Part shown: positions 1 through 18,405 of the stretch, piece by piece
Layout of the letters: each line of letters starts with the position of its first letter
Position numbering within the stretch: position 1 is the stretch's first letter
NCBI GenBank assembly: GCA_963932905.1
Contig: CAWVRN010000017.1
Coordinates: 1 to 64,000, forward strand
Length of the DNA stretch: 64,000 nt
Source: an uncultured Bdellovibrio sp.
GTDB lineage: Bacteria; Bdellovibrionota; Bdellovibrionia; Bdellovibrionales; Bdellovibrionaceae
Direction of reading: 5' to 3'
Program-made: the position numbers and the translations under genes
The notes under the pieces: generated by a model
Databases searched by the model: none
Seen by the model: only the letters and a program-made list of their open reading frames with translations
What the model was told of the DNA's origin: nothing

Positions 1-2
1 AA

Positions 3-239
3 TATAAAGGTCGAGCAAGCGCCATTGTGGGTCAAGGTGAGTTGAAGAAGGTTGGGTTTGACCCGTTGTTTGCGATTAACCATACGTGCGCGACTTTAAG
101 AGCTAGGACTTGTAGATTGATCCGAAGAACTTGGTGCACTACGAAGAAGCCGGAAATGCTTAATTTACATTTGGCGATAGTGTGTCTTCATCATAACTTG
201 AATTTAAAGAAATTAAATCTCCCCTTAGCTGCAGCCTAA
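3..239 (+). mobile_element. 3' end of IS1-like (DDE) transposase, 5'-truncated by window edge
   Basis: Frame open from position 3 (YKGRASAIVGQGELKKVGFDPLFAINHTCATLRARTCRLIRRTWCTTKK). LR..xxRLxRRTxCxxK resembles the C-terminal motif of IS1-family InsB transposases. No terminal inverted repeat identified. Confidence 0.55.
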
Positions 240-250
240 GGGGCCAGTTC

Positions 251-1111
251 TTAGGGTTTAACAGCGATCGTTTGTCCCAATTGGGCAAACGTTTCTATTC
301 CTTGCGCTGAATAGCTTAGAATTTTTTCTTGAAATACCATTTTAGTATTTAGAAATACAACGGCTGTAGATCCACCGAATTCGAAATACCCGCATTCATC
401 ACCCTTATTAAAACGAGTTCCCGTTTTGTGAGTAATTTGGATCGACCCAATGTAGGTTGCACCAATTAGAACGATGTATGCACGGGCATGGTTGTCGAAT
501 TCTAGTTCTAGAACTGTCCTTTTATTTCGAATGAACAGTTTGGAATCATGCTTAAGTGTCACTGGATTTATCGAATATAATTTACCACCAATCGTTTTTG
601 CGAATTTTAAAATACCGGAAAAGGGAAAGTGGAAACGGTGATATTCTTTAGGTGACAAGCGAACAACCATGCTTTGCTTGATTTCAAATGTAGGTTCGAA
701 CTGTAGTAATTCGTTGGCGGTCGAAGTGATTCCTTTGATGGGAAGAGTCGCATCTGTTGAAACTAAATAGTATCCTTCGGCAAGCGCCGAAAAATTATTT
801 TCACCTTTCGAAAATGGACGGGACGTCGGTTTAAAGTTTCGAATAAAATAGTCGTTTAAAGATTTATAGTTTTCGTTAATATAGTCATCGTCCACAATAT
901 CGAATTCTCTTCTAAAACCTGCTATTTTGCTATGGCTCATTGGTGACTTAAGATATTTTGAAACCACTTGGCTAAATATTGGAAATGAAATTGCATAGTT
1001 AACAAGTTTACCAAGTGAGTTAGTGAAAAGCCAATCTGCGATGGCATCACGTTGAATTTTGAGTGGTACAAGCTCATCCGTGGATAAATTGTAGAAACTA
1101 GATTTTTTCAT
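251..1111 (-). CDS. psd: Phosphatidylserine decarboxylase family (pyruvoyl-dependent) proenzyme
   Basis: SLNDYFIR, LSPKEYHRFHFP, IGATYIGSI and the GYFEFGGST self-cleavage motif. Overlaps the upstream ORF by 14 nt. Confidence 0.88.
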   Translation of the reverse strand: MKKSSFYNLSTDELVPLKIQRDAIADWLFTNSLGKLVNYAISFPIFSQVVSKYLKSPMSHSKIAGFRREFDIVDDDYINENYKSLNDYFIRNFKPTSRPFSKGENNFSALAEGYYLVSTDATLPIKGITSTANELLQFEPTFEIKQSMVVRLSPKEYHRFHFPFSGILKFAKTIGGKLYSINPVTLKHDSKLFIRNKRTVLELEFDNHARAYIVLIGATYIGSIQITHKTGTRFNKGDECGYFEFGGSTAVVFLNTKMVFQEKILSYSAQGIETFAQLGQTIAVKP

Positions 1112-2009
1112 ATAGTTTAATCCTATAGGAACCAGTCATTTCGTTTTCAAATAGTTTAGTATTGTGAGTGTTTTCTTTTAACTGATCACTCACTAGGTGA
1201 ATTTCATCAATATAGGACCTAAATAGTATCTGACCTCGAGACGTTAAGGCGCGAGGTACCACATTTATCATTTTCATTTTTTCGACGGGGTTTAAATAAT
1301 TTATGACATTTGAATAAGAAATGAAATCTAATTCGTTTTTCTTGCTGGCTAGAAACTCGTTAATATCTTGGTGTATGTAGTGGATTTTAATATTCGGAAG
1401 ATTGTTTTTGGCTTGTTGCCAAGTGTGTTCAGAAATTAATTCTGAAAATGCTTCAAGTGTTTCAGCGCGGCCCTTGATCAGCTGCTGCCAAAAGAAATTT
1501 TTTCGGTAGTCTGTTCTCATCAGTTTGTGAAATGATAACTTGATATAATCGTGATAGTTAATATCGGTTGATCGGTCTTTCCTGGCCTGTTTTAAAATAT
1601 AGGAATATATTTTTACAAATAAAGGCCATCTTTTTAATGTGGTAAGATCCACGGTTCCTCGGAATTGTGAACCAAAGAAAAGGCGCAGCAGTCGAGCCCT
1701 CGTTTGATAACTCCGTTCATGACGGCCTCTATACAGCGGACTGGTTACGGAGGTGGGATTGACTTTATCAATGAAGCTCTGATAGTCGGGTTCGTGTAAC
1801 AAGCGTAGAACTGACTTCACTTGATCCATTTGAAGCAGAGACTGATCGACAATATAGATTGTTTGGATATGATCTGCAGATAGCAATGGCAGCACACGAT
1901 AACCACTTCCAGCAATGCTGGCCACAGTCTTCGCTGTGTTCGGCAAAACAGAACGTTCGCACCTAGGATCTTCATTTAAGAAAGAATACTTCAGATTATT
2001 TTTTTTCAT
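1098..2009 (-). CDS. DUF3419/BtaA-family SAM-dependent 3-amino-3-carboxypropyl transferase-like protein
   Basis: N-terminal YSFLNEDP, then VASIAGSG..VLPLL, VDQSLLQ and YSNVINYL follow the BtaA/DUF3419 motif order. Confidence 0.72.
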   Translation of the reverse strand: MKKNNLKYSFLNEDPRCERSVLPNTAKTVASIAGSGYRVLPLLSADHIQTIYIVDQSLLQMDQVKSVLRLLHEPDYQSFIDKVNPTSVTSPLYRGRHERSYQTRARLLRLFFGSQFRGTVDLTTLKRWPLFVKIYSYILKQARKDRSTDINYHDYIKLSFHKLMRTDYRKNFFWQQLIKGRAETLEAFSELISEHTWQQAKNNLPNIKIHYIHQDINEFLASKKNELDFISYSNVINYLNPVEKMKMINVVPRALTSRGQILFRSYIDEIHLVSDQLKENTHNTKLFENEMTGSYRIKLYEKI

Positions 2010-4224
2010 TTTCCACCGACTGGTTACTAAATGACCTTAAAATCCAGACATCACCAAACAGAGTCGCGATTAATCCAAAGAACATCAATAATCCAAACGT
2101 TTTTGGCGGCGAGAAATACGAAAATAAAAATAACAAAGCCGAAAGTGACATAATGGCTAAGCAAACCGTCGCACCGCCGGCCAGCTCACCAAGTCCTTTT
2201 GAAATACCTTTGTTTTTATCAACGAGCAAAAAATTAATGGCGTTGTCGCCGGCAAGACCAACCAAGATACTAGCAAACACACTGGTCAGGAAGTTAAGGG
2301 GCATTTGAAATACGATCACTACCAAAAACATCAGTGCTGGCCCCCAGAAGGACGATAAGATGATAGGAATAATTTGATTTCCAGCGTTTACGGCTAGGCA
2401 GATCCAAACGATAATGAGGCTTACGTGAATAATGCTTACAAAGAAACTCTCGTAAAGTGTTTTAGGAACTAGTGATAGCAAGTCCAAATGTTTGACTAGC
2501 CCAGAAATCACTTGGCACTTTTCAATTTTGCAAAAGTCTCGAAGGGTGTTCACTGCCAGGCCTACACCGGCAACCTCAAGACTGTCAATATAGACAAGAA
2601 TTCGGCGACGGCCCGTAGCATCTTCATAACGCTTGTACGACTCATCGGAACCCCATTCAATTTTGACCAGCGGTTTTACGTCGTCGGGAATATTCTTGTT
2701 TAGTTCATCTAATGCTAAAATTCCGCTTTCGATATTTTTAACAAACTTATACTTTGATATTTTGTCGATGGCCTGTCTGACTTGATCATCATTAATTCCC
2801 ACATCAAAAATAATACTCGTCGAGGACTGCCAAGACCGTGTTTCTGAAATGTAGTCAACGGTTTGTCTAAGTTGTTTATCTCGCGAGAAAATGGAATAGA
2901 AATGTTCATTCGTGTTTACGAAATAGGCTCCAAATATTGCGAAAACATAAACTAAAAGCAGAATCTTGCTTTTTTTAAATGATAAATTGCTAATCTGAAT
3001 TTTATTTGCCCAGCGAATGCCGAATGCCTTGCTAGATTTAACCCAAGAGCCTTTCATTTTAAACAATGAATGAATCGCCGGGGTGTAACAGAAAAGAATA
3101 ACCCATTCCAAAATAGATCCAATCGCCGCCCATAACCCCAATTTTTGAATAGATGCCAAATCTGAAACGGTGAGTGAAATAAATCCTACGGCCGTTGTTA
3201 ACGATGTCATAGCGCTGGGTAAAATCAAACGACGATGTGCTTTTCTAAATCCATCTTTGAGCATCAAAGTAGAAACGAAAATAAAATCTTCTAGTGCCGC
3301 TACACCAAGAATCATAAATAAACTATCTGATAGGGCATCTGACGTGGAACCAAACATCGCTTTAAGTGCCATCAATAACGAGTAACCTAAAATTAAATTC
3401 GTGTTGTAAATTAACCCAGATAACCAAGTTCCAAATGACAATCGACAAAGCACGATCAGCATCAGGCAAAATACCAAATTGATCCATTGGGTGGTATCTA
3501 TCCCATAAAGAACTTCAGAAATGTATTCCGCATTGCCGACGTAGGAAAATTGAATTGTCTGTCCAAATTTCTTTGCAAGGCGGTGCTTGATGTCGTCTAG
3601 AGCCACAGGATTAAAGCTGCCATATTTAAAGTTTTCGGTTTCTTCAAACGAAAGATTGATAACTATATCATTTGAACGGCCAACAAATATTTTCCCCCAC
3701 AATGAAGATTTTAAATTGTCTAGTGAGATCACTTTATCGGACGGGTTTTTGCAATCCAGTTGGATATAGCGGGGATAGAAAAGAATCTTGTCCTCAAATT
3801 TTGCTTCACGAATACTAAAACTAGAACTGACCGAATGTATGTTTAAATGATTAGCTAAATCGTAATTTACATAGCCTCGCAATGCACACAGCTGTGATTC
3901 CGTCCATTGCGTATTTTTACTTCGTGCGAGAATGGTGACACTTGGTTTTTCTTCGAAATGTTCTTTCAGATCTTGGTAGGCTTGCGCGCTAGGTAATCCG
4001 CGTGCATCCATGTCATCGGCAGAGAGTTCGATTTTTAATTTGCCGATGTTAAAATAAATTATCAAAAGCACGGCGATAATCGAACCAGCCCAAAGGACGG
4101 GATGACGAATCGCATTTCTGTGAGTCAGTAGCAATACGTAATGTATCCAGCGCAGACTTTTTCGCGAAATGGAATAGAGGGGAGATAGGCTAGTGACCTT
4201 ACTTTGGCCAGGTGGTTTCTGCAT
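1996..4224 (-). CDS. MMPL/RND-superfamily membrane transporter
   Basis: Two repeats of 1 TM + soluble domain + 5 TM. Motifs GVAALEDFIF, TSLTTAVGFISL and GLAGDNAINF. Exact start codon uncertain. Confidence 0.85.
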   Translation of the reverse strand: MQKPPGQSKVTSLSPLYSISRKSLRWIHYVLLLTHRNAIRHPVLWAGSIIAVLLIIYFNIGKLKIELSADDMDARGLPSAQAYQDLKEHFEEKPSVTILARSKNTQWTESQLCALRGYVNYDLANHLNIHSVSSSFSIREAKFEDKILFYPRYIQLDCKNPSDKVISLDNLKSSLWGKIFVGRSNDIVINLSFEETENFKYGSFNPVALDDIKHRLAKKFGQTIQFSYVGNAEYISEVLYGIDTTQWINLVFCLMLIVLCRLSFGTWLSGLIYNTNLILGYSLLMALKAMFGSTSDALSDSLFMILGVAALEDFIFVSTLMLKDGFRKAHRRLILPSAMTSLTTAVGFISLTVSDLASIQKLGLWAAIGSILEWVILFCYTPAIHSLFKMKGSWVKSSKAFGIRWANKIQISNLSFKKSKILLLVYVFAIFGAYFVNTNEHFYSIFSRDKQLRQTVDYISETRSWQSSTSIIFDVGINDDQVRQAIDKISKYKFVKNIESGILALDELNKNIPDDVKPLVKIEWGSDESYKRYEDATGRRRILVYIDSLEVAGVGLAVNTLRDFCKIEKCQVISGLVKHLDLLSLVPKTLYESFFVSIIHVSLIIVWICLAVNAGNQIIPIILSSFWGPALMFLVVIVFQMPLNFLTSVFASILVGLAGDNAINFLLVDKNKGISKGLGELAGGATVCLAIMSLSALLFLFSYFSPPKTFGLLMFFGLIATLFGDVWILRSFSNQSVENEKK

Positions 4225-4261
4225 TAATTGAAGTCTAATTTATATTGTGAGACAATCAACA

Positions 4262-4302
4262 AAGAACCCCTTCATAAATTCATCATTTATGAAGGGGTTC
4301 TT
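4262..4302. repeat. Perfect 18-bp inverted repeat with 5-nt loop (hairpin, operator or terminator)
   Basis: AAGAACCCCTTCATAAAT-tcatc-ATTTATGAAGGGGTTCTT between divergent genes. Confidence 0.85.
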
Positions 4303-4394
4303 ATATAATGCGTTAATAATTCTGATGTTGAACGTTTTATAAAATATTGGTCGTATTGTTATGTACATTAATAAAAGTCACAGGAGAAAATTTT

Positions 4395-6005
4395 ATGAAC
4401 AAGCTTATTAGTTTGATAGCTGTGTTGTCGTTTTTCGCAGTAGCGAATTCAGCACCGACGAAAGAAAGATGGCCCACAAAATATGAACCAATGGTGGCTA
4501 TGCCTGAAGCGTATACTGTTGCGCCAATTTCATACGAACAGTCTTTAAAAATGGCTGAAGAAGCAAAGAATACTCAAGTTCGCAAAATTGCTGGCGTTGC
4601 GGATGAAACGGGAATGTCGAAAGAACTTGTAGAACTTCGTAATGCGTTAAACAAACTAGGTTATGATGATAATGGGAAAAAACTACCGAAAGCGGAATTA
4701 TATAAGGCTGCAAACAAGCTTCACAAAATTCTGTTAGATGCCAAGGCGAAAGCCGAAACGGCTGAAAATGATTTCAAATTTGTAGTAGCTCATTTGGCTC
4801 CAATGGCGGCTTATCGTAGTATTGTATATCGTATGATTCCTGTTCTTCAACCGTCTCAAGCATTAAGACAATCGATTGTAGATACAATCCAAGATTCATA
4901 TGCTGATATGAAATTATTTTTTCCAGATTCAGAATGGGAAGTGGGGTTCGCGTACATAACAGAACCTTTTTCTGCTTCAAAAGTTGAAGGCGTCGATATC
5001 CCTGCTTCTGCTGATCAATTCAAAAATGAAAGTGAAGTTCAAGCCTACTTAACCGGTAGAATTGCGAATGAAGCTCAGTGGGCTAGCGCGATTTTGTCTA
5101 AGATTAATGTTCCAGCTGACAAGCCACTTGTATTAGATAACCGTCTGATTTACGGAAAAATGGCTTTCAGTAATAAAGCAGATACTGATCGCTATACATG
5201 GGTTAGACAGTATGACGTAACAGCCGCACGTGGTCGCATAGAAAAACAACTCTATTCAATTCGAATCAATGCAGTTTACAACATTCAAAAATCAGCACAG
5301 TTGGCTTCGGAAGTCGCAGCCCTTTACGGGATCGAAGTCGCAAAGGCGAAAATTGCAGGCCTGATTAAAAAAGACGTAATGGCACCAACTCGTAAAGACC
5401 GTATTTCTATTGTTATGCACAGAGAATTCGCGGATTCGTTCGTTAAAAATCCAGATGCTCAAAAGCATTTAGAAGCGGCTATCACTCATCTGCAAAACAG
5501 TGTGGCGCTAAACTACTCTGCTTGGTTAGCGTACTCTAAAGTAACTGATGCCGCATTAAATGCGATCATCGATCCTGCATTTTTCAAAGCTAGAATTCCA
5601 GAAACTGAAAAAGGTTTTAAAAATGCAATTGGCCTGGTCTACGGAAAACAAGATACGGTTACTAGTGTAATTACTGGTAAAACAGTAAAAATTAATTTCC
5701 GCCAGTTCTTATTAACTAGTTTGCCTCACGATAGCAAAAATATGTTGCCAACTATCTTCGATGATAAAGGGCCACGTTACTTAACTCGTGATGGTATGAA
5801 ATATCGTGACTACGCCTGGGGACGTGCGATTGGTTGGGATTCTGCTATCTACCAAAATTTGTTCCCAGAATTAAAAGATATCATTAACGATCCAAAACAA
5901 GGCAAACAAGTCGCCGACCTCGAAGTGAATGATTACATGAAGACCTTCACTGAAAGCCGTGGTGGAACTCAAATCGCAGATTTTTTACTGGGCTACGTTC
6001 GCTAG
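4395..6005 (+). CDS. Secreted hypothetical protein
   Basis: AGGAG RBS before ATG 4395 (preferred to TTG 4347). Sec signal peptide MNKLISLIAVLSFFAVANSA. No family recognised. Confidence 0.75.
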   Translation: MNKLISLIAVLSFFAVANSAPTKERWPTKYEPMVAMPEAYTVAPISYEQSLKMAEEAKNTQVRKIAGVADETGMSKELVELRNALNKLGYDDNGKKLPKAELYKAANKLHKILLDAKAKAETAENDFKFVVAHLAPMAAYRSIVYRMIPVLQPSQALRQSIVDTIQDSYADMKLFFPDSEWEVGFAYITEPFSASKVEGVDIPASADQFKNESEVQAYLTGRIANEAQWASAILSKINVPADKPLVLDNRLIYGKMAFSNKADTDRYTWVRQYDVTAARGRIEKQLYSIRINAVYNIQKSAQLASEVAALYGIEVAKAKIAGLIKKDVMAPTRKDRISIVMHREFADSFVKNPDAQKHLEAAITHLQNSVALNYSAWLAYSKVTDAALNAIIDPAFFKARIPETEKGFKNAIGLVYGKQDTVTSVITGKTVKINFRQFLLTSLPHDSKNMLPTIFDDKGPRYLTRDGMKYRDYAWGRAIGWDSAIYQNLFPELKDIINDPKQGKQVADLEVNDYMKTFTESRGGTQIADFLLGYVR

Positions 6006-6011
6006 TCTGAA

Positions 6012-7595
6012 GTGACTAAGGATCTAAATCTTCTCGTTGCTCTTGAGATCGAAAGAATCAAGAGCAAAACGCAGAATAAAAAATACATTTTAACGGATAC
6101 TATGATCGGAGAATCGTTGGTGACCCCAACGATTCTTACGTTTAGCCTATTCGAATTAGGTCTTTACAATGGAAACTCGATCGCACAAGCGATGGAATGG
6201 TTGGGTTTTCCGTTCTATCACAAGCCAACTGAGCCCGCAGCATTCATGCTTTTGTTTGGGCGCCCCTACGTAAATGTGTCTTCATATACACAAGCGTCTT
6301 TGCCTTATTGGCCGATAAAATTTTCAACTAATCACCAAGTAGAAATGTCGATCAAACCGTCGATTCTATTATTGTGGCCGCTGATGTTGTATCAATCGGG
6401 AAGGATTCTGTATCATCTGCGACAATTTATTCTAAGTGCAGAATCTAAATGGGCATCAATGAAAATGGACTGTCCGCGCGCGATTTTGGAAACTGAAAAC
6501 TTGGGAACGAGTGCGCAAAAGATGGAGCAGTCTTTAAAAAATAGTCAGAAATTTTTTGCCTTTCACGTGGCTACCGATTTTTGTTTTGGTGGTATCCAGG
6601 TTCTGTTAAAGGGCCTACATAAAATATTGAAGGCTCCTCACGATATCAATGTTTGGGATCCTAATTATCAAGATATGCCTTTGATTCAGTTTCACTTAGA
6701 TTTATGGAAACTCAGCCATAATCAAATTTCTAGAGAGTCTTTTATCGCTAAACACGGTTGCCGTAGTCATAAAGATTGGGAAATATCGGCACCTAGATTT
6801 TATGAATCGTCCTCGCAGCTGGATGAATTGTTAAAAAGCTTAAAAGAGAAAGATAGTTTTGAGATTGTTTTTAAAAATCAACAGGTAGAAAAAGCTAAAC
6901 GACAAGATGAAATTAGGAATTATTTGAATCGAAAAACATCAATTTTAAAAAATTGGTATCTGAAGCTTGGACAAAGCTATGCGAAAATTTTTGTTTTACG
7001 TGAAGATTCCAAACGGCTTTGTTTTGAATGGATAGCATTGTTTCGGCGTGTAGTTATAAATATTCAGCGCGAAAATCATTGGGGTGATATCGTATATCAC
7101 TTGTCCATTGATGAATTAGAATCTGCAGTGCTTGAAACCGACCGTATTAAGTTAGCGTCTTTATTTCAAATGGCTCAAGAGCGTAAGGATGCTGCGGATC
7201 GGTTGATTGCCGTAAAGCTTCCGTCCGCAGTCGACACGAGCCGCTTGAACGAGCTTTTCAATTTAGAAACTTCCTCACAGATTGATGAACTTGTTTGCTT
7301 GTCTCCGGGGGTTGCGGAAGGGGATGTCATCGTAGTGAATTCGGCCGCCGATTGTACCTCAATTCAAGCTAATCATATTGTGGTGACGCGATTTGTGGAT
7401 CCCCAGTATATTCCTTTCATGATCAAGGCTCGCGGTTGGATTCTTGAACAAGGCAGTTTGCTGGGGCATTCTTCTATATTGGCTCGCGAGGCGCTGATTC
7501 CAGTTGTATCCAGCTATCGCAATGCCACCGAGACATTTAAGCAAGGATCGCGTGTGCAGTTGGATGCGAACGTTGGCGTAGTCCGTCAAGTCTAA
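6012..7595 (+). CDS. PEP-utilising enzyme mobile (phospho-His swivel) domain protein, RPH/PPS-like, no ATP-grasp domain
   Basis: C-terminal SPGVAEG...EQGSLLGHSSILAREALIPVV...LDANVG. Central HGCRSHKDWEISAPRF resembles the helical substrate domain of rifampin-phosphotransferase-like proteins. Confidence 0.8.
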   Translation: MTKDLNLLVALEIERIKSKTQNKKYILTDTMIGESLVTPTILTFSLFELGLYNGNSIAQAMEWLGFPFYHKPTEPAAFMLLFGRPYVNVSSYTQASLPYWPIKFSTNHQVEMSIKPSILLLWPLMLYQSGRILYHLRQFILSAESKWASMKMDCPRAILETENLGTSAQKMEQSLKNSQKFFAFHVATDFCFGGIQVLLKGLHKILKAPHDINVWDPNYQDMPLIQFHLDLWKLSHNQISRESFIAKHGCRSHKDWEISAPRFYESSSQLDELLKSLKEKDSFEIVFKNQQVEKAKRQDEIRNYLNRKTSILKNWYLKLGQSYAKIFVLREDSKRLCFEWIALFRRVVINIQRENHWGDIVYHLSIDELESAVLETDRIKLASLFQMAQERKDAADRLIAVKLPSAVDTSRLNELFNLETSSQIDELVCLSPGVAEGDVIVVNSAADCTSIQANHIVVTRFVDPQYIPFMIKARGWILEQGSLLGHSSILAREALIPVVSSYRNATETFKQGSRVQLDANVGVVRQV

Positions 7596-7613
7596 GGTCT
7601 AGATCTGAAATCG

Positions 7614-7629
7614 TGGCATTGATCCTGCT
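7614..7629 (+). promoter_or_regulatory. Putative sigma-54 (-24/-12) promoter
   Basis: TGGCAT-TGATC-CTGCT, with exact GG-N10-GC spacing, upstream of an AGGAG RBS and the ORF at 7655. Confidence 0.55.
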
Positions 7630-7654
7630 CCTGTTCTGAACTACACAGGAGCGC

Positions 7655-8146
7655 GTGATGTACATAGACTTCCCTAATTATAACGAAGGTCCAGTCGCTG
7701 CGTTGATGCGATTGAAAAGCATGAGCCTAGCGGAATCAAAAAATGATTTCAGAAAACGACACGTTCGTGTTGAGCTTTCTTTTCTTGCCGACAAACAACG
7801 TTGGCAAATGGTGTTTTATAAAAATCAGCAAATGATTTTTCTGAAAACATTTTCGAAAACATGTCGTTCATCGATCGGTCATTGGTTCCGGACTTATAAC
7901 TTGGAATTGGACCAAGAGTCCCAAGTAAAAATTCCATGGAAGTCGCTAGAGAGCGGGGAAAAATGGGTGGTCGAGGCTTATGTGAATCGACGTTACTGGA
8001 GTTTACTAGAGTTGCCTCCAGAGCTTTCTCTGTGCCAAATAATCAAATGGCCAGAGAATAGAAAACCGCGTCCGAGAAGGAACCTTTTTGAATGCGAAGA
8101 TATGGGAAAAGTAATTCCGCTCCCGATCGTAAAAAAGCGACGTTAA
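7655..8146 (+). CDS. Hypothetical protein
   Basis: 163-aa ORF with AGGAG RBS. No recognised family. Confidence 0.6.
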   Translation: MMYIDFPNYNEGPVAALMRLKSMSLAESKNDFRKRHVRVELSFLADKQRWQMVFYKNQQMIFLKTFSKTCRSSIGHWFRTYNLELDQESQVKIPWKSLESGEKWVVEAYVNRRYWSLLELPPELSLCQIIKWPENRKPRPRRNLFECEDMGKVIPLPIVKKRR

Positions 8147-9456
8147 ATTTTAATTGCTTCAATAGTGTGTGAATGTTTCGGTTTCAACACTACGCTGATA
8201 CTGGGAGTTAGATCGATGGAATCACAACGCAAGTTAAAATTACGAAGAAGCTGGTATAGTATCCATTTTCCTTCCATCAAAGCCAGTTGACTACCGATGC
8301 AGGATCGTGGGCCAGCAGAAAACGGAAAGAAGGCTTTTTTGTTATAGTCTTTTTCAAAACGTTCAGGAATAAATGAATTAGGTTGGTCCCAATACTTGGC
8401 GCTGCGATGAGTGACGTACGGACATAAATTAATCGTACTGGCAGCGTCAATGCCGTAGCCCATAATTGAATCAGGTCCCACAGAATCACGCGAGATCATC
8501 CAAACGGGTGGATACAAACGCAATGATTCTTTTAAAATATTTTCTAACACTGTTAGCTTTGATAGATCGGCGTAATCTGAAACTTCAATCGAGCGTGCAA
8601 ATTCAGCAGCTTCTTTTAATTTATTCGGATGCTGAAGAAGCAGAAGCAGTGTCCAGCTAAGCATATTTGCGGATGTTTCATGTCCCGCCATAACAAAAGT
8701 GATCAGTTGGTCTTTTATAATTGAATCACTGATTTCGTTTGGATTTTTTATTTGTTCTTGAAGAAGTGTTTCTAAATAGTCTTGATGTTGCCCCAAATTT
8801 TCTTTTCGTTGACGAATAATATCTAACATCAATTTATCGATTAATGTTTTATATGAATTAAATTTTTTACCATTGCTGGTAACGTAGTACTCGTCCCAGT
8901 CAATAAATGCTTCCATTCGTCGATTCATAAATGAAACGCAGTATTCAAAAGCTGGCGATAGAACTTCTGTCTGTGATGATAAATCTAAATGGAACATGGT
9001 TTGGCTGATGATTGATAACGTAATTTCAATCATCTGCGATTGCAGATCCATTGATTGCTTCCGAGCAATTTGTAGAACCGTGGCTTCGGTTACTTTCTTA
9101 ATTGTATTGAAATAGTCCTTCATCGCGGGAGGCGAAAAACCGGGTTGGGCAGCTTTGCGTTGCTGCTGCCATAGTTGGCCTTCTGCCGTAACTAAACCCG
9201 AACCTAAAAATGTCTTTAGTTTTTCATAGCGTTTGCTTTTTGTATAATTCTTACTGTTGCCAACAAGGATATGTTGAATTGCGTCCGGGTCATAACAAAT
9301 ATAGCGAAATGATTGTCCTTTTTGAAACCTAACAAAGCCACCATATTTTTCGTGCATAGACTGGAACGTGCCAAGTGGATCGCGAATCAATTGCGGTATA
9401 ATGCCAACAAAAGGTAGACTATTCGGGCCCGGGGGCGCAAGATTAGGGGACATCAA
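8143..9456 (-). CDS. Cytochrome P450
   Basis: I-helix AGHETSA, ExxR (ESLRLYPP), FIPERF and heme motif FPFSAGPRSCIG. Confidence 0.95.
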   Translation of the reverse strand: MMSPNLAPPGPNSLPFVGIIPQLIRDPLGTFQSMHEKYGGFVRFQKGQSFRYICYDPDAIQHILVGNSKNYTKSKRYEKLKTFLGSGLVTAEGQLWQQQRKAAQPGFSPPAMKDYFNTIKKVTEATVLQIARKQSMDLQSQMIEITLSIISQTMFHLDLSSQTEVLSPAFEYCVSFMNRRMEAFIDWDEYYVTSNGKKFNSYKTLIDKLMLDIIRQRKENLGQHQDYLETLLQEQIKNPNEISDSIIKDQLITFVMAGHETSANMLSWTLLLLLQHPNKLKEAAEFARSIEVSDYADLSKLTVLENILKESLRLYPPVWMISRDSVGPDSIMGYGIDAASTINLCPYVTHRSAKYWDQPNSFIPERFEKDYNKKAFFPFSAGPRSCIGSQLALMEGKWILYQLLRNFNLRCDSIDLTPSISVVLKPKHSHTIEAIKI

Positions 9457-9473
9457 TTAGGATTGTAATCAAT

Positions 9474-10238
9474 ATGGATTTGAAAGACAAAACTATTATT
9501 ATTTTTGGCGCCTCGAGCGGAATAGGTGAGGCTTTAGCGGTTGAACTCTCAAAACACAATCGAGTGTGTACGTTCAGCCGTCGTCCATTTCCTAAGCCCA
9601 ATGACAATATTCTGCCTTTTCAAGGTGATGTTACGAAGAAACAAGATATTAAGAATGCAGTGGATATGTGTAAAAGCAAATGGGCTGTGCTAGATGGATT
9701 TATTTACAGTGTTGGCCAGGCCCAAATCACAGACTTTAATAATTTCAAAGCCGATGATGTTAAAGCCTTAATGGACACAAATTTTTTTGGATTTCTAAAT
9801 AGTTTAGAGTGTGTACTGCCAGATTTAATTCAGCAGAAGAGCGGCGTTATTGCTGTGGTTTCTGCGTTGATGTTGAATCGAAGTCTTCCTAATGGCGCTT
9901 CTTACTTTGGAACAAAAGCAGCAATGCATGTTTTTTTTGAAGGCCTGCGTATGGATTTACAGAATAGAGGAATCGAATTTTTTGAAATTCGGCCTGGTTT
10001 AGTGGACACACCAATGTCACGCAGTATGGATGTCAAGTCAGACAAAATGTGGAGCAGCGAAAGAGCCGCGCAGTATATTGTAAAACAAATGAAAAAGAAC
10101 GAAACCGATATCTCATTTCCTTTGGATTTAAAAATTTTAACTCAGTCATTGAATGTATTACCAGATTCTACTTATTTTAAATTGATCAAATCCCAAATGG
10201 ATAAAAATTTTAGAAACCGACCTAAATTAGAATCCTAA
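9474..10238 (+). CDS. Classical SDR oxidoreductase
   Basis: GASSGIG, YxxxK (YFGTK), PGLVDT. Confidence 0.9.
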   Translation: MDLKDKTIIIFGASSGIGEALAVELSKHNRVCTFSRRPFPKPNDNILPFQGDVTKKQDIKNAVDMCKSKWAVLDGFIYSVGQAQITDFNNFKADDVKALMDTNFFGFLNSLECVLPDLIQQKSGVIAVVSALMLNRSLPNGASYFGTKAAMHVFFEGLRMDLQNRGIEFFEIRPGLVDTPMSRSMDVKSDKMWSSERAAQYIVKQMKKNETDISFPLDLKILTQSLNVLPDSTYFKLIKSQMDKNFRNRPKLES

Positions 10239-11270
10239 GTCTTTTCCTAATTTAAGAAATGTATTTAAATACCCGACTTGATCATCGGCACGATGGCGAT
10301 AAAGGTTTCTCGCAATAGAAGCATCGTAGGAAATCATTTTTCCCTTATTGTTTTTAAGTCGTAATTCGCTCGTCGCTGTAACATCACCAATAAAAACCAA
10401 GTTTTGAAATTCTTTGGTGTACTGATTTTCAAAATCTAAGCTGAGTTGAGCTGGAACACAAAATATTAATTCGTAATCGCCAAATTCGCCCGCCAGCAAT
10501 GACCACGGCGTGATTTGATATTTTGATTTGGCATCAGAAGCCAACGGGTGAAGCAAATTTTCTAAAGGTAACGAGCATTCTATGCCTTTGCCATTTACGC
10601 GAACCAAAAGATCTAGCGAGTTTAAAAAACCGTCGCTAGAATCAATCATGCAATTGGCAAATCGATTTATAATTTGGGATTCTTTTAGGCGCGCCTCGGC
10701 CAAATAGTCTTTCTCGTTAGCAAGGGACTTGGATTTATTAAACCAGCGTTCAGCCACTAAAGCATTTCCTTTGCCTGGTTTTCCCGTCGAATAGATCTTG
10801 TCACCTGCGTTCATACCTATTCTTGAAAGGGGTTTGGCCGTTGAATGTCCAAGGACTGTCAGATGAATACTAAAACTTTGGCCAGAGGCTGTGTCGCCGC
10901 CAAATAAAAAAAGTCCATGCTTTTGCGCAACATCATTAACGCCAGCTAATACATTTTGAATGAATTCGTTGTCTTGGTTGCGTCCGATGATCAGGCCTTG
11001 CAAAAACCCTTTGGGCCAGACCCCAACAGCGGCAAGGTCACTCAGAGCTGTTTCCAGCGCATGTTGACCAAGCTGGCGGGCATTTGAAATCAAATTCCAC
11101 GATTGTTCGTCGCCGACGATGTCTAAACTAAATGCAAGAAAACTCGTTTCCGAAAGTTGTAAAATTTCAGCGTCACTATGAAAAAATGCATGCGTTTGTT
11201 TTGGACTTCGCGGAAGGGATTGAATCAGTTTTTGCAGACTTGAGAACTCATCTAATTGTGTAAGTTTCAT
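10227..11270 (-). CDS. ThiL-like (PurM/AIR synthase superfamily) ATP-dependent kinase, paralog 1
   Basis: LSDLAAVG, GGDT, GDKIYSTG, IDSSDG, GDYEL. The canonical GDD reads HSD, so the substrate is uncertain. Confidence 0.8.
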   Translation of the reverse strand: MKLTQLDEFSSLQKLIQSLPRSPKQTHAFFHSDAEILQLSETSFLAFSLDIVGDEQSWNLISNARQLGQHALETALSDLAAVGVWPKGFLQGLIIGRNQDNEFIQNVLAGVNDVAQKHGLFLFGGDTASGQSFSIHLTVLGHSTAKPLSRIGMNAGDKIYSTGKPGKGNALVAERWFNKSKSLANEKDYLAEARLKESQIINRFANCMIDSSDGFLNSLDLLVRVNGKGIECSLPLENLLHPLASDAKSKYQITPWSLLAGEFGDYELIFCVPAQLSLDFENQYTKEFQNLVFIGDVTATSELRLKNNKGKMISYDASIARNLYRHRADDQVGYLNTFLKLGKDLGF

Positions 11271-11272
11271 CG

Positions 11273-12190
11273 CTAGTCCGTTCCTAGCGCTGTCATCAGT
11301 TTTAGTTTTTTAGCCACGCATTCTATCTGAAACTCTTTCCCAAAATAAATTTCGCCATCTAACTCCAGCGGAATAGCCTGTTCTGTTCTAATTGATATTG
11401 ATTTATCTTTGAATTCGACGTGAGTCGGTGAATTGAATTCATTCTTTAGTGTTAAATTGTAAAACACTTTCAGCGTATGCATGGGGCCAAGGTCATCGAA
11501 CAAATGAAAATCAAGAAGTCCACTTTGCAATGAATTACCGCGCTCAAAAAAATAGTCGCCGGTATAGTGTTTAGCTTTTAAAAATTGAATATTTAAATAT
11601 TTTTTATCAGCTAGGCCTGCGACGGAAATTCTGACCGGTGTGTATTTGAATAAGCTTTTTATGAATATGTAATTATTGGCAGCTTCGGTAGATAAGCGTT
11701 TTAGCAACTGAGTCATGCCACCTTTTTTATTAAAGAGCAAATTTCCCAATGCTAGAAAACCAAGTGAACCGTTGGCAGAAAAATATTTGGTATGCTGGGT
11801 TCCGTCTTCTGTTTTAAAAAAGACTTTGCCCACATCAACACTGGATTCATTGTTTTCATCTGCAATGTAGGGAACGTTGTTTTCTTTTTTAGCTGATGAA
11901 ATCGATTTCAAAAAACTGCACGAACTACCAAGTCCAACCACTCCAAGTCGCACACGTTCGAAATCTATATCGTTTTGAAAAACTGAGTTCAATGTGTGAT
12001 GAATAGTGCCATCACCACCACCGATAATTAAAGAATTATGAGTTTGAATATACGCACGCATTTTGGGAGTCAATTCATCAGGCGGCAGAACTACAGGTTC
12101 AAGGTGCGAAAGGGCCGAACGGACCTTGTTCCATTTGGACATCGAATTCTGGCCGAAAGAGTCTTGATTGATAAATATTTTAGACGTCAT
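11273..12190 (-). CDS. Diacylglycerol/sphingosine kinase family lipid kinase
   Basis: GGGDGTIH, GLGSSCSF, ELDGE. Confidence 0.85.
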   Translation of the reverse strand: MTSKIFINQDSFGQNSMSKWNKVRSALSHLEPVVLPPDELTPKMRAYIQTHNSLIIGGGDGTIHHTLNSVFQNDIDFERVRLGVVGLGSSCSFLKSISSAKKENNVPYIADENNESSVDVGKVFFKTEDGTQHTKYFSANGSLGFLALGNLLFNKKGGMTQLLKRLSTEAANNYIFIKSLFKYTPVRISVAGLADKKYLNIQFLKAKHYTGDYFFERGNSLQSGLLDFHLFDDLGPMHTLKVFYNLTLKNEFNSPTHVEFKDKSISIRTEQAIPLELDGEIYFGKEFQIECVAKKLKLMTALGTD

Positions 12191-12776
12191 CGGAAAACAG
12201 TCGGGCCTTCACAAGTATTTGCTCAAAAACTTTGGTCGCTTCTAAATCGCCATTAATTTGAACTACATTTTCCAATTGAGAGACATAGTGTTCTAAATTC
12301 TCTTTGTAGACATCTAATTTATCCCAGAATAATTTTTCGTAGGAAGATAAATTAGTTTTCCGCTGTTTTACGGTGTCCGTTGAGCATTTTAAATATATGG
12401 TTTTATCGGGATATTTAAAATGTGTTTCCATTGCAAACCACAAAGACAGTGGACTACCCAGAGTCTGTTCACTGGCTGCGTATTTGGGAAGCCCAGCATT
12501 GAATATAACCAGGTCATACGCAGAGAAATCAATGCGTTTTTCACTTTCCATCAGCATGGACTGTAAAAACAAAGATCGCGCCTGAGGTGTCGTTTTGGTA
12601 AGGAAAATATCCAATGTGTTTTTCATTTCCATTTGTGGAATAGATGAAAATAATTTCAAGCTATCCCAAATTGAATAGGCCAATACGGTTTTATTTTTAG
12701 ATTTACCGTAATTTATAATATTCTGAATTTGAGTGTCCTTACCCGATCCGTCTAGACCTGTAATTACCCACTTCAT
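12180..12776 (-). CDS. Thymidylate-kinase-like P-loop kinase (divergent)
   Basis: ITGLDGSGKDTQ, PDKTIYL, INGD. The canonical DR motif is absent. Confidence 0.7.
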   Translation of the reverse strand: MKWVITGLDGSGKDTQIQNIINYGKSKNKTVLAYSIWDSLKLFSSIPQMEMKNTLDIFLTKTTPQARSLFLQSMLMESEKRIDFSAYDLVIFNAGLPKYAASEQTLGSPLSLWFAMETHFKYPDKTIYLKCSTDTVKQRKTNLSSYEKLFWDKLDVYKENLEHYVSQLENVVQINGDLEATKVFEQILVKARLFSDDV

Positions 12777-14053
12777 TATGCATATCTCTCGTAAGTCGAT
12801 TTCAAAATGTCTACCGCATCTTGAATATCCTTAGGTGTATGAGTTGCCATTAGTGACACTCGAAAACGTTCGCCGCCCTTAGGAACACCCGGAGGTTCAA
12901 TAGGATTTACGAAAAGCCCATTTTCATGAAGCTTTTGCGATAATATACGAAAACTTTCTGGCGTTGGTGGGAAAACGGGAATGATCGCGCTGCCGGTGCG
13001 TGTGTACTTAATGCCGGCTTTATCTAAGTAGTCGTAAAATAGTTTAATATTCGTATGCAATTTATCTACACGTTCTGTAGAACGTTCTAAAATATCAAGG
13101 CAAGCTAAAATAACGGCCATAGATACGGGAGACAAAGACGCGGTGAAAAAATAAGGACGTGAGAAGAATCTTAAAAAGTTCACAGTGTTTTTGTCAGCAG
13201 CAAAGAAACCACCGGTGATTGAGAAGGCTTTTGAGAAAGTTCCCATGGCGTATTGCAAACGCTGAGTGATCCCCACTTCTTCAGCCATTCCGCGACCTTT
13301 ACCCATAACACCAGTGCCATGAGCGTCATCGATCACATATTTAGCGTTGTACTTTTCGCAGACATCAGAGATTTCTTTGACTGGCGCTAATTCGCCGTTC
13401 ATTGAATAGACCCCTTGAGTCGTCACCCAAAGGTCACGATTAGCATCTTTATCACGATATTTTTTTAGCATTTTTTCTAAATCATCGGGATCGTTGTGAT
13501 TGAAACGAAATGCTGTTTTGCGGCCGAGTTTGATTCCATCGACAACCGATGCGTGTGAAATTTCGTCAAAAAACAATACCGCGTTGTCAGATACTAGCGT
13601 TGTAACCCATGTTAAACTTGTCATGTAACCAGATGGTAGAATAATACAGTCTTCTTTGCCTTTGAAGTGGGCAAGACGTTCTTCCACGGTTCTGTGCAGT
13701 TTTGAAGTGCCATTGAGTAACATCGGGCCGCCCATGCCTAGGCCTTGGGTATCGATAGCTTGTTTAGCACGTTCTTTCACTTCGGGATCGTTGGCAAAAC
13801 CAAGATAGTTGTTCGAACCCATCATGATCATATCGATCGTCTTTCCAGAAATAGGATCTTTAACTAATACACGACGATCCACCGGTGATAAAATTTCGCG
13901 ATGATATAAAAGTTTGCCTTCATTGTAGAGTGGGCGGAAATAACTTTCGAAAAAATTAACATCCGCGTCGATCTGCCCTTTAAACTGGCTGGCTAAAGTT
14001 AATAAGTTAACCGCATCTGACGTATTGTCGTTCCAAGTTCCTGATTTATCCAT
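12776..14053 (-). CDS. PLP-dependent alpha-oxoamine synthase, serine palmitoyltransferase-like
   Basis: MMGSNNYLG, SHAS, GVYSMNG, DDAHG, GTFSKA (PLP lysine), FTASL. Family is certain; SPT versus BioF/KBL is inferred from context. Confidence 0.8.
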   Translation of the reverse strand: MDKSGTWNDNTSDAVNLLTLASQFKGQIDADVNFFESYFRPLYNEGKLLYHREILSPVDRRVLVKDPISGKTIDMIMMGSNNYLGFANDPEVKERAKQAIDTQGLGMGGPMLLNGTSKLHRTVEERLAHFKGKEDCIILPSGYMTSLTWVTTLVSDNAVLFFDEISHASVVDGIKLGRKTAFRFNHNDPDDLEKMLKKYRDKDANRDLWVTTQGVYSMNGELAPVKEISDVCEKYNAKYVIDDAHGTGVMGKGRGMAEEVGITQRLQYAMGTFSKAFSITGGFFAADKNTVNFLRFFSRPYFFTASLSPVSMAVILACLDILERSTERVDKLHTNIKLFYDYLDKAGIKYTRTGSAIIPVFPPTPESFRILSQKLHENGLFVNPIEPPGVPKGGERFRVSLMATHTPKDIQDAVDILKSTYERYA

Positions 14054-14104
14054 CTTTAAAGGGTAAAATTTTTATCTAGGATTGCCTAGTTTTTTTCAAA
14101 CAAA

Positions 14105-15118
14105 TTACCGCGTTAAGTTAGGGCGGGTCCACGAATTCTGCTGATACCAACGATAGGTCAAAGATATGGTTTCATTTAAATTGTGCTTGTACGAAAAACC
14201 CGTGTCCGCGATGAAATGAGAGGTGTCAAATACCCAGTACGGCGCCATCATTTCACCTAGCTTGTTTACATTTTTGTTAGTCTTTTTCCCAGTTAAAGCC
14301 TCTTTGAGGTCAAAGTATTTCAAATACAAAAATGTAATAGTAGGATTCAAGAAAAGTATTTTTAGCGAGCGACCTAGAAACAGTTCGATCGCTGTTTTCA
14401 TTTGATTCCAATCAGCTGCGTTAGGGTACGCGATATGATAGATTTTATTCTTTTGTTCAGAAAATAATGCGGTTTCAATGGCTCGTACCAGATCTTGGAT
14501 ATAAATAAACTGAAATACTTTTTTCTTTTGCCCTAAGATAGGAAACTTACCTGTATCGGCTGTTTGAAAAATCTCAAGAAATGTTTTGTCTTCGGGGCCC
14601 AGGATAGGGGCGGGTCGGAACACAAGTGATGGTAAAGACGAATTTAAAACTTCTTTTTCTGCCATCAGTTTAGTTTCACCGTAAAAAGAAATCGGCTTTG
14701 CAATCGCGGACGGTGGAAGTTTGTTCTCTGCTGAATCGCTAGGACCCAAGGCACTTTGCGACGAAAGAAAAATTAATTTCTTTAAACCTTTTGGTAATTG
14801 AACAAGTAGCTGTTGAGTGATTTTGAAATTTGACAAAAGGTAGTTATCATATTTTGCCCCGAGCATGGTTCCTGCACAATGAACGGCGTATTCGACGGCG
14901 GGTAACGGTTCAAGTAATTGACCCAGATCAGAAAATTCACCAGCTAATATTTTAAGATTCGTGGAATCTTGATTGCCCCATTTTTGTTTAAAGAATTCAA
15001 CTTGTCCCGGCAGCATAAATGCATACACAGTAAATTTTTTGCTTAAAGAACGGCATAGGTGGGTTCCTACAAAACCATCAGCGCCGGTTACTAAAATAGT
15101 TGTTTCTCTTGCGTTCAT
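14105..15118 (-). CDS. NAD-dependent epimerase/dehydratase (extended SDR)
   Basis: TGADGFVG, HCAG, SSQSA, YGETK. Confidence 0.88.
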   Translation of the reverse strand: MNARETTILVTGADGFVGTHLCRSLSKKFTVYAFMLPGQVEFFKQKWGNQDSTNLKILAGEFSDLGQLLEPLPAVEYAVHCAGTMLGAKYDNYLLSNFKITQQLLVQLPKGLKKLIFLSSQSALGPSDSAENKLPPSAIAKPISFYGETKLMAEKEVLNSSLPSLVFRPAPILGPEDKTFLEIFQTADTGKFPILGQKKKVFQFIYIQDLVRAIETALFSEQKNKIYHIAYPNAADWNQMKTAIELFLGRSLKILFLNPTITFLYLKYFDLKEALTGKKTNKNVNKLGEMMAPYWVFDTSHFIADTGFSYKHNLNETISLTYRWYQQNSWTRPNLTR

Positions 15119-15141
15119 TCTGATTTATCGTTTCACATTAT

Positions 15142-15834
15142 ATGACGTCCTTCAATGATAATTACGATTACATTCTGTTAGACCTTGATGGCACACTTGT
15201 CGACTCTCCGAAAAAAAAGTTTTTGCTTTACAATACGCTTGGGCTGTTCAAAAGATTTCGTAAGGTTTTCGGTTTATTGAAAACCGTCCCGGTTGTTAGC
15301 CGGGCGATTGCGGCCATGTTAAAAAATAGTAGTTCGACGGGGCTAACCAATTATTCAGTATTGGTGGCTACCTGCCATAGGGAGTCCAGCACGCCCGAAG
15401 AAATCATTCGTCATGAATTGGATCTATACTATCACAATGACTTTCTAGCCTGGGAAAAATTGTTTACTGCCGTACCAAATGCACTTGAGTTTGTGAAACA
15501 AGCAAAGGTTCGAGGAAAGAAAATGTATATTTGGACGAATCCTATTTGGCCCGAATTCAATGTGAAAAAACGCTTAGAGTGGGCAGGCTTTGATACAAAT
15601 GATTTTGAGGGTTTCACGCACTCACAAAATGCTATTGGATGCAAACCTAACGTTGAATATTATGCCTATTCTTTAAAATTGTTTAATTTAGATCCCAGTC
15701 GCTGCGTGCTGATTGGAGATAGCGAATACAAGGATGGGCCGGCTCGAAAAGTAGGAATCCATACGTTTATTCTTTCATCTGACAAAGCACAGTCTTGGAC
15801 TGACTTAACGGAAAAACTTGTCTTAGGGAACTAA
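15142..15834 (+). CDS. HAD-superfamily hydrolase (phosphatase)
   Basis: DLDGTL, WTNP, CKP, IGDSEYKD motifs I-IV. Confidence 0.9.
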   Translation: MTSFNDNYDYILLDLDGTLVDSPKKKFLLYNTLGLFKRFRKVFGLLKTVPVVSRAIAAMLKNSSSTGLTNYSVLVATCHRESSTPEEIIRHELDLYYHNDFLAWEKLFTAVPNALEFVKQAKVRGKKMYIWTNPIWPEFNVKKRLEWAGFDTNDFEGFTHSQNAIGCKPNVEYYAYSLKLFNLDPSRCVLIGDSEYKDGPARKVGIHTFILSSDKAQSWTDLTEKLVLGN

Positions 15835-18398: not shown

Positions 18399-18405
18399 AT
18401 TATCC

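Follow-up and report, generated by a model that had tools for sequence, protein, structure and literature searches.

What does a transferase of the BtaA family do when its partner in the operon is a decarboxylase, and which lipid would the two enzymes make? This question is raised by the first 4.2 kb of a 64,000-nucleotide stretch from an uncultured Bdellovibrio sp. (positions 1 to 64,000 of contig CAWVRN010000017.1, assembly GCA_963932905.1; the whole stretch is called the window, and its contig C17). Three minus-strand open reading frames (ORFs) fill this part, and they encode, in order, a protein resembling the MMPL transporters of the resistance-nodulation-division (RND) superfamily, a DUF3419/BtaA-like protein predicted to depend on S-adenosylmethionine (SAM), and a pyruvoyl enzyme similar to phosphatidylserine decarboxylase (PSD). 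The last two are referred to as P0002 and P0003, and the genomes, contigs and loci compared are labelled with G, C and L. In the known pathway, BtaA catalyzes SAM:diacylglycerol 3-amino-3-carboxypropyl transfer, and N-methylation by BtaB then gives diacylglyceryltrimethylhomoserine (DGTS). The original prediction for this locus was that the transferred group is decarboxylated instead of methylated. We find this interpretation plausible and better supported than when it was first written, and we see an even chance that aminocarboxypropyl transfer from SAM to a membrane lipid is followed by decarboxylation to an aminopropyl head group and by export.

Each of the three genes lies exactly at the coordinates originally given, and both junctions of the trio are 14-nt overlaps, as had been claimed, with the downstream ATG located within the final codons of the preceding gene. 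With moderate confidence, we predict that the RND-like, DUF3419 and PSD-like genes constitute one operon for making and exporting a modified membrane lipid, in which both the catalysis and the export are predicted functions.

The window, the loci L008-L011 and L042 all contain the trio in identical order, and in L042 the contig stops inside the RND gene; this last locus was obtained from a metagenome scan, which yielded at least one locus. The PSD paralog is present in the genomes G000, G400, G455, G461 and G469 and on the contigs of L009, L011 and L042, and a DUF3419 gene is adjacent to it in every case; for G455, G461 and G469, the check covered the adjacent DUF3419 and PSD genes only. These correspond to about seven independent genomes or contigs, because L010 looks identical to G400, and G469 and G461 seem to correspond to L008 and L009. 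In a family sample of 121 genomes, the paralog (>400 bits) was detected in five of the ten members of the window's genus and in none of the 111 others, and DUF3419 adjoins it in all five carriers. Some DUF3419 gene was found in 106 genomes of a phylum sample of 401, and those outside G000 and G400 encode a different type of about 368 aa. None of the loci of this type from other Bdellovibrionota (L013-L041, with about 1.5 kb of flank each) had an adjoining PSD gene. The arrangement of the trio is not due to chance.

The same two domains also occur within one polypeptide. P0023, a 613-aa protein from a JGI contig of 608 kb, has an N-terminal DUF3419 and a C-terminal PS_Dcarbxylase domain, which is the order of the operon, and its alignments span the whole of P0002 (29% identity) and the whole of P0003 (37% identity). 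In the DUF3419 tree (62 rows), eight window-type proteins, the protein P0022 and the N-terminal half of P0023 form one clade with SH-aLRT support of 99. In the PSD tree (15 rows), the C-terminal half of P0023 is sister to the window clade with support of 98/98, and the housekeeping PSD branches elsewhere. The two trees agree, which suggests that the DUF3419 and PSD-like genes have travelled together for a long time. When further DUF3419-PSD fusions were sought, six proteins were returned, and only P0023 contained both domains.

A second type of pairing was obtained from a tblastn search of plasmids with a DUF3419 protein of canonical length. On the Deefgea piscis plasmid NZ_CP054144.1 (L047), a 360-aa DUF3419 gene is followed, after 15 nt, by a gene for a 129-aa AdoMet_dc protein of the SpeD type. 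SpeD-type enzymes are pyruvoyl decarboxylases with a fold different from that of PSD, and therefore the Deefgea pair can be regarded, by analogy, as a non-homologous version of the DUF3419-PSD pairing. In both cases a DUF3419 gene directly adjoins the gene for a pyruvoyl-dependent decarboxylase, whereas the Deefgea decarboxylase has the other fold and its neighbours are typical of small-molecule pathways. The Deefgea cluster (6255-10106 of L047) consists of a haem-oxygenase-like iron enzyme, DUF3419, the SpeD-type decarboxylase, an ABM monooxygenase and a serine hydrolase, and is flanked by transposases. On a plasmid of Xylella fastidiosa (L048), the iron enzyme and DUF3419 are instead accompanied by an Asp/Asn hydroxylase and a GNAT. 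No true btaA-btaB operon was found in the plasmid collection.

P0002 belongs to the DUF3419 family by its score against Pfam PF11899 (57.7 bits; cut-off, 28.2), and it covers the 385-position model only at 7-83 and 206-349. It has 303 aa versus 350-410 aa in most relatives, and thus does not reach the full canonical size of BtaA. Its AlphaFold2 model (mean pLDDT, 94.3) has the class I SAM-methyltransferase (Rossmann) fold, with Z values of 11-12.5 to many small-molecule methyltransferases, and a helical domain of about 150 residues interrupts this fold after the second strand. The Foldseek matches were weak (template modelling (TM) scores of 0.3-0.4), and a PDB sequence search with the DUF3419 protein gave no match. 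In an alignment of 89 sequences, the AGSG glycine-rich loop and the acidic D55 show no or almost no variation. The model confirms P0002 as a predicted SAM-binding protein. A profile search of 1.84 billion representatives gave 301 relatives at E<=0.001 and only three at E<=1e-30, namely the window's own cluster, P0022 (325 aa) and the fusion P0023; the P0002 subfamily is rare.

To our knowledge, BtaA is the only characterised DUF3419 protein, and aminocarboxypropyl transfer to oxygen is the only activity recorded for the family. On the basis of its family, P0002 is proposed to be a 3-amino-3-carboxypropyl transferase. We favour transfer of this group over that of methyl because only the former creates the free alpha-amino acid that a pyruvoyl decarboxylase needs.

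P0003 scores 134.6 bits against PF02666 (PS_Dcarbxylase; cut-off, 22) and stays below the cut-off of every NCBIfam PSD equivalog (best, 205.7 vs 371; TIGR00163, 107.1 vs 111.75). The cleavage motif GGST at residues 246-249 and the HRFH motif at 158-161, whose histidines are equivalent to H144 and H147 of E. coli PSD, are invariant across the paralog clade. The equivalents of E. coli D90 and D142 are Glu (E112 and E156) in the paralog clade and in P0023, and Asp in the housekeeping PSD. At the positions of E. coli Y137 and S166, P0003 has Arg and Ser, respectively. In the study of the E. coli PSD structure, the two acidic residues aid self-cleavage, Tyr137 binds the lipid phosphate, and Arg is given for the Tyr137 position in 15% of PSDs (PMC7952604). 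In the AlphaFold2 model of P0003 (pLDDT, 89.3) the N-terminal helices are retained, and no structure matches it better than E. coli PSD (TM on the target, 0.74; root-mean-square deviation, about 3 A; about 250 columns). The relatives that act on soluble substrates, PsiD and the Aspergillus arginine decarboxylase, match less well (TM, 0.44-0.49 on the target). Because GGST and both histidines are kept, the model is nearest to E. coli PSD, and Arg and Ser stand at the phosphate site, P0003 looks like an active enzyme of the lipid type.

Both of the findings that the original proposal had named as refuting it were checked, and the first of them does not apply, as this enzyme is not the only PSD of the genome. 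A second PSD, encoded on contig C26, scores 194.7 bits against PF02666 and passes TIGR00163 with 199.1 against the cut-off of 111.75. Genes for the housekeeping PssA (134.6; cut-off, 107) and PgsA (153; cut-off, 109) are located on other contigs of the same genome, so that both psd and pssA exist separately from this locus. The earlier statement that the window has no phosphatidylserine synthase holds for all of contig C17, on which no CDP-alcohol-type PssA was found. Since the C26 enzyme outscores P0003 and passes TIGR00163, and PssA and PgsA pass their cut-offs, P0003 appears to be surplus to the synthesis of phosphatidylethanolamine (PE) and is, by these scores, not the PE-forming enzyme. 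In the family sample, 92 of the 120 other genomes have a PSD match, and all except those of the four paralog carriers score <=119 bits against P0003, as does the housekeeping PSD of the window's own genome. P0003 is proposed, from its sequence, as the decarboxylase of a homoserine-type head group.

The two enzymes and the transporter would work together as follows. The DUF3419 protein would bind SAM and move the 3-amino-3-carboxypropyl group onto an oxygen of a membrane lipid in the manner of BtaA. The acceptor could be a hydroxyl, as in diacylglycerol or a ceramide-like lipid, or a lipid phosphate, and the result would be a homoserine-type head group. The PSD-like enzyme, associated with the membrane, would then condense its pyruvoyl group with the new alpha-amino acid to a Schiff base and release CO2, which would leave a 3-aminopropyl (propanolamine-type) head group. 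Finally, the RND/MMPL-like protein, perhaps with the secreted 552-aa protein encoded by the divergent gene, would extract the product from the inner membrane. A weak hint of a phosphate-linked, phosphatidylhomoserine-type head group comes from the Arg and Ser that P0003 has at its phosphate site.

Both chemical steps have precedents. According to the part of the study relevant here, E. coli makes phosphatidylhomoserine and decarboxylates it in vivo to phosphatidylpropanolamine, a step that the authors attribute to Psd (PMC12221286). This side reaction gives the type of product that is proposed for the window genes. In the maturation of microcin C, as described in passages of PMC10491745, MccD and MccE aminopropylate the phosphate by SAM-dependent aminocarboxypropyl transfer and subsequent decarboxylation. 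The same passages list BtaA among the aminocarboxypropyl transferases, as a protein not homologous to MccD. The analogy with MccD/MccE, which had been drawn originally, is apt in that the logic of transfer and decarboxylation is the same (PMC10491745, in the same passages). The resemblance, known here as an analogy, is one of mechanism only; the decarboxylase domain of MccE uses pyridoxal phosphate and not a pyruvoyl group, and the substrate is a peptidyl-nucleotide and not a lipid.

Compared with the BtaA/BtaB pathway, P0002 has the same family (PF11899) and SAM-binding Rossmann fold, and the first step is proposed to be identical. It differs in that P0002 is shorter, belongs to a separate, rare clade and has a decarboxylase as its partner rather than a methyltransferase, and the expected product would carry an aminopropyl head group and not trimethylhomoserine. 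With the PssA/Psd route to PE, the locus shares the decarboxylase family, the GST self-cleavage motif, the catalytic histidines and the fold. Unlike in that route, the head group would derive from SAM through DUF3419 and not from free serine or homoserine through PssA, and P0003, as the second copy in the genome, has Glu at each of the two acidic positions and lies below all NCBIfam PSD cut-offs. A literature search, with supplements outside it, gave no description of a DUF3419-PSD pairing.

The first gene of the operon had been labelled MMPL. The scores alone do not support this label, since the 742-aa protein reaches 16.9 bits against Pfam MMPL (cut-off, 20.5), and 32 and 27 bits against the NCBIfam models HpnN (cut-off, 752) and HAE3 (cut-off, 352). 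PDB sequence searches with this protein gave no match. Its hydropathy profile shows about 12 hydrophobic segments, grouped in two blocks and interspersed with two long loops, which fits the twelve-helix topology of RND proteins. E312, D313 and D660 lie inside hydrophobic segments and are invariant in all five homologues, and the identity across the orthologous loci is 76-90%. The homologue in the genus-mate G280 (26% identity) scores 36.4 bits for MMPL, which is above the cut-off. Because of this RND-like pattern and the score of the G280 homologue, we accept the protein as a predicted distant RND-superfamily transporter of the lipid-export type. It is the probable exporter or flippase of the lipid product.

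The genome G280 also bears on how the pair relates to its surroundings. It has neither DUF3419 nor the PSD paralog, and the surrounding island is kept at 57-90% identity. The middle section is different; it contains a 595-aa homologue of the 552-aa protein (22% identity) adjoining the divergent RND gene (26% identity) and unrelated small genes. Since the lipid-type genes and a divergent RND gene are kept there without the pair, the DUF3419-PSD pair is, as judged by this comparison, an optional tailoring cassette. The RND protein and the 552-aa protein look like an export part common to both variants of the locus. In two other genus-mates, G349 and G449, no oxoamine-synthase match was found, and the PigE-like matches were only weak.

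It had also been stated that no BtaB-type methyltransferase accompanies the pair. This is true within the window, where no ORF of at least 100 aa reaches the cut-off of any methyltransferase family, and it is an effect of the contig edge, because a methyltransferase gene lies just beyond. Position 1 of the window is the first base of C17 and lies inside a multi-copy repeat. The first 30 nt also open contig C25, and the genome has 17 copies of the 15-nt terminal motif of the repeat, of which many, C17:238 and C7:40 among them, are close to contig ends. The repeat is probably an insertion sequence located between the convergent 3' ends of the PSD-like and methyltransferase genes, which broke the assembly at C17/C7. 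P0003 is 2 residues shorter than its orthologues and differs from them in its final few residues, and its final codons border directly on the inserted repeat. In four related genomes, the PSD-like gene ends its operon tail to tail with a convergent three-gene operon, and in relatives without the insertion the 3' ends of the PSD and methyltransferase genes share 10 nt. The methyltransferase gene (Methyltransf_11, UbiE-like, 214-219 aa) opens contig C7 in the window's own genome and overlaps the PigE-like gene of that operon by 4 nt.

The operon partner of the DUF3419 gene is thus the PSD-like gene and not a btaB. The convergent operon is kept in G280 at 65-67% (the methyltransferase at 65%). 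Because the methyltransferase gene belongs to a different operon and persists in G280 without the DUF3419-PSD pair, its product does not appear to be a dedicated BtaB, and the gene appears to be independent of the pair. The 867-aa protein of the convergent operon is a fusion of an aminotransferase and a reductase that resembles PigE with the domain order reversed. PigC- and PigE-type enzymes belong to prodigiosin chemistry. An operon of PigC/RedH-like, PigE-like and methyltransferase genes is thus present in a predatory bacterium, and no other prodigiosin genes were seen nearby.

How far can the scheme of transfer followed by decarboxylation be carried? The fusion P0023, the sister relationships in the trees, the Deefgea SpeD pair and the phosphatidylhomoserine of E. 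coli all strengthen the proposal as it was first made. The data themselves show the conserved gene order, the family memberships, the intact catalytic motifs, the redundancy with the housekeeping PSD and the fusion; we infer which group is transferred, to which acceptor and in which order of steps, as well as the export. Several points weigh against the scheme. P0002 is about 100 residues shorter than the canonical forms and aligns to only two parts of the Pfam model. Its fold cannot distinguish methyl from aminocarboxypropyl transfer, and its best structural matches are ordinary methyltransferases, including PE N-methyltransferase and NodS. The two acidic residues that aid the self-cleavage of E. 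coli PSD are both exchanged for Glu in P0003. The housekeeping PSD of the same genome has no equivalent of Ser166, and the phosphate-site argument is weak for that reason. The fusion is a single sequence, the lone member of its cluster; both trees are small, with rows drawn from search hits; and the Deefgea example is one locus, in which the role of SpeD may be no more than the supply of decarboxy-SAM. The RND protein might work for the gene island as a whole and not for the product of the pair. For the P0002 subfamily, the scheme is built on sequence, models and analogy.

The chemistry could run in the reverse sense, which we regard as unlikely. The PSD paralog would then make an ethanolamine-type lipid from a special lipid of the serine type, such as a sphingoid or ceramide phosphoserine from the neighbouring genes, and DUF3419 would alkylate the amine with methyl or aminocarboxypropyl. 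P0003 does keep all residues of phosphatidylserine chemistry and looks most like E. coli PSD, P0002 has a fold resembling small-molecule and PE N-methyltransferases, and an oxoamine synthase, an NAD reductase, a YegS-like lipid kinase and a fatty-acid hydroxylase are encoded close by. However, neither the operon nor the cassette contains an enzyme that would install serine, the sole PssA being encoded elsewhere and of the housekeeping type, and G280 has these lipid genes but not the pair. A coupling as tight as a fusion is explained less directly in this way, and the one activity recorded for DUF3419 is aminocarboxypropyl transfer to oxygen. The ordinary synthesis of DGTS, in which DUF3419 and the nearby methyltransferase would be BtaA and BtaB and the PSD gene would be an unrelated neighbour, has very little probability. 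A Methyltransf_11 gene (214-219 aa) does lie directly beyond the PSD gene, but it is convergent and part of the PigC-like/PigE-like operon with its 4-nt overlap, it is kept at 65% in a genome that has neither DUF3419 nor the PSD paralog, and P0023 fuses DUF3419 to PSD and not to a methyltransferase.

The substrate of the pair could also be a soluble metabolite, for example an amine or acid that is aminopropylated to a polyamine-like or opine-like compound and exported by the RND protein. PigE-like and PigC-like enzymes in the neighbouring operons are typical of small-molecule pathways, and other DUF3419 genes are found in clusters of that type with iron oxygenases and GNATs. The transporter is nevertheless of the MMPL/HpnN lipid-export type, though weakly, and in the P0003 model the N-terminal helices are kept and about 250 columns match E. 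coli PSD, so we consider such a substrate improbable. The same lipid product would be reached in the opposite order, if the PSD-like enzyme decarboxylated SAM and the DUF3419 protein transferred the aminopropyl group from decarboxy-SAM to the lipid. Enzymes of the PSD family can use free amino acids (PsiD, Aspergillus arginine decarboxylase), and the Deefgea locus pairs DUF3419 with a SpeD-type enzyme. For MccD/MccE, the passages of PMC10491745 state that the reversed sequence is not excluded. In the window's own genome, AdoMet decarboxylase and spermidine synthase regions lie in one 436-aa frame (C18:57632-58759), an apparent SpeD-SpeE fusion. Decarboxy-SAM should therefore already be available, and the presence of this gene makes the reversed order less likely. 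P0003 is also nearer to the lipid enzyme (TM on the target, 0.74 vs 0.44-0.49 for the soluble-substrate relatives), and we take this order to be somewhat more improbable than a soluble substrate. Transfer of the aminocarboxypropyl group to a lipid before decarboxylation is the order that we prefer.

The features of the locus and its surroundings are collected in Table 1.

Table 1. Positions of the genes and other features at the locus (window coordinates unless a contig or locus is named)
Feature	Position	Strand	Basis or remark
Multi-copy repeat end, probably an insertion sequence	1..253	none	Repeated terminal motif, contig break
PSD-like pyruvoyl decarboxylase paralog gene, P0003 (286 aa)	251-1111	minus	PF02666; last gene of the operon
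DUF3419/BtaA-like SAM-dependent transferase gene, P0002 (303 aa)	1098-2009	minus	PF11899
RND/MMPL-like transporter gene (742 aa)	1996-4224	minus	First gene of the operon; weak MMPL/HpnN/HAE3 matches and hydropathy
Divergent intergenic region with inverted repeat	4225..4346	none	Between the trio and the 552-aa gene
552-aa protein, no known family, signal-peptide-like N-terminus	4347..6005	plus	Divergent from the trio
527-aa protein with PEP-utilising mobile (phospho-histidine) domain	6012..7595	plus	PF00391, 55.6 bits
163-aa protein, no known family	7655..8146	plus	Closes the divergent operon; travels with the trio
Lipid-type island, part 1	8143-20584		P450, SDR, two ThiL-like AIRS kinases, YegS-like lipid kinase, dTMP-kinase-like protein
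Lipid-type island, part 2	8143-20584		Serine-palmitoyltransferase/BioF-like oxoamine synthase, NAD epimerase-family reductase, HAD hydrolase
Lipid-type island, part 3	8143-20584		PEP-utiliser protein, NTP_transf_5 protein, fatty-acid hydroxylase
Convergent operon	C7:53-5788 (own genome); L008:9756-15440	opposite	811-aa PigC/PEP-synthase-like, 867-aa PigE-like, 219-aa Methyltransf_11

Among the divergent genes, that for the 552-aa protein is present at all loci carrying the trio. The protein has no Pfam or NCBIfam match, and an Atlas search gave unnamed clusters only, the best two being mostly from Bdellovibrionota. This protein could act in the periplasm as a partner of the RND protein. The following gene encodes a phosphoenolpyruvate (PEP)-utilising protein of 527 aa, which NCBIfam PEP-synthase and PigC models match at residues 242-525 only, and no ATP-grasp domain is recognisable in it. 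The idea that the 552-aa protein is its lost ATP-grasp half was rejected, as hhalign against PigC-like proteins gave a probability of 1.6%. The 163-aa protein has no family match in Pfam or NCBIfam. Both the 527-aa and the 163-aa genes are conserved in L008-L011 and G400, and neither was found in the syntenic region of G280.

The 122-nt intergenic region between the two operons is nearly invariant in all five orthologous loci, whose proteins are only 51-90% identical (the DUF3419 proteins, 51-74%). Shortly before the RND start, a hairpin scan detected a perfect inverted repeat of 18 bp (4262-4302, minus strand). One stem pair of the hairpin shows a compensatory change, and another shows changes to U-G, two in all. 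The region is single-copy in the window's own genome, was not found in the G280 region, and matched no Rfam family at threshold. The hairpin is a candidate leader RNA or operator for a regulator.

The lipid-type island may make a sphingoid-like or amino-lipid scaffold, and the remaining part of the window consists of ordinary envelope genes (BamA, Skp, LpxA/B/K, MreC, PBP2, RodA and Lol-like). A different extra PSD-like gene was seen in the locus L044 (G441:C8:135500-151500), at 7273-8397, and its product also has Glu at the D90 position. Its neighbours encode two PigC-like PEP-utilisers, a fatty-acid desaturase, an amidohydrolase, a CarS-like protein and an AurF-like di-iron oxygenase, and no DUF3419 gene is present in L044.

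Taken more widely, DUF3419 together with a pyruvoyl decarboxylase, either PSD-like or SpeD-like, could be a portable aminopropylation module, a tentative reading to which we give somewhat less than an even chance. In this locus, the module would produce a SAM-derived propanolamine-type lipid head group, with a lipid phosphate or a sphingoid-type lipid from the neighbouring genes as a possible acceptor and with an RND exporter of its own. If this is true, it would be the first genetically encoded pathway to a propanolamine-type (3-aminopropyl) lipid, and the aminopropyl/propanolamine lipids, so far known only as a trace side product in E. coli, would form a new lipid class. Bacterial head-group chemistry has been thought to be largely mapped, and a head group derived from SAM and then decarboxylated would extend this map. 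For the protein families, it would provide a first function for one branch of the large, almost uncharacterised DUF3419 family, and a further case of a PSD-family enzyme recruited to a new substrate. Predatory bacteria of the Bdellovibrio type remodel both their own envelopes and those of their prey, and for this reason a strain-variable, exported, positively charged lipid could matter for the surface properties of the predator.

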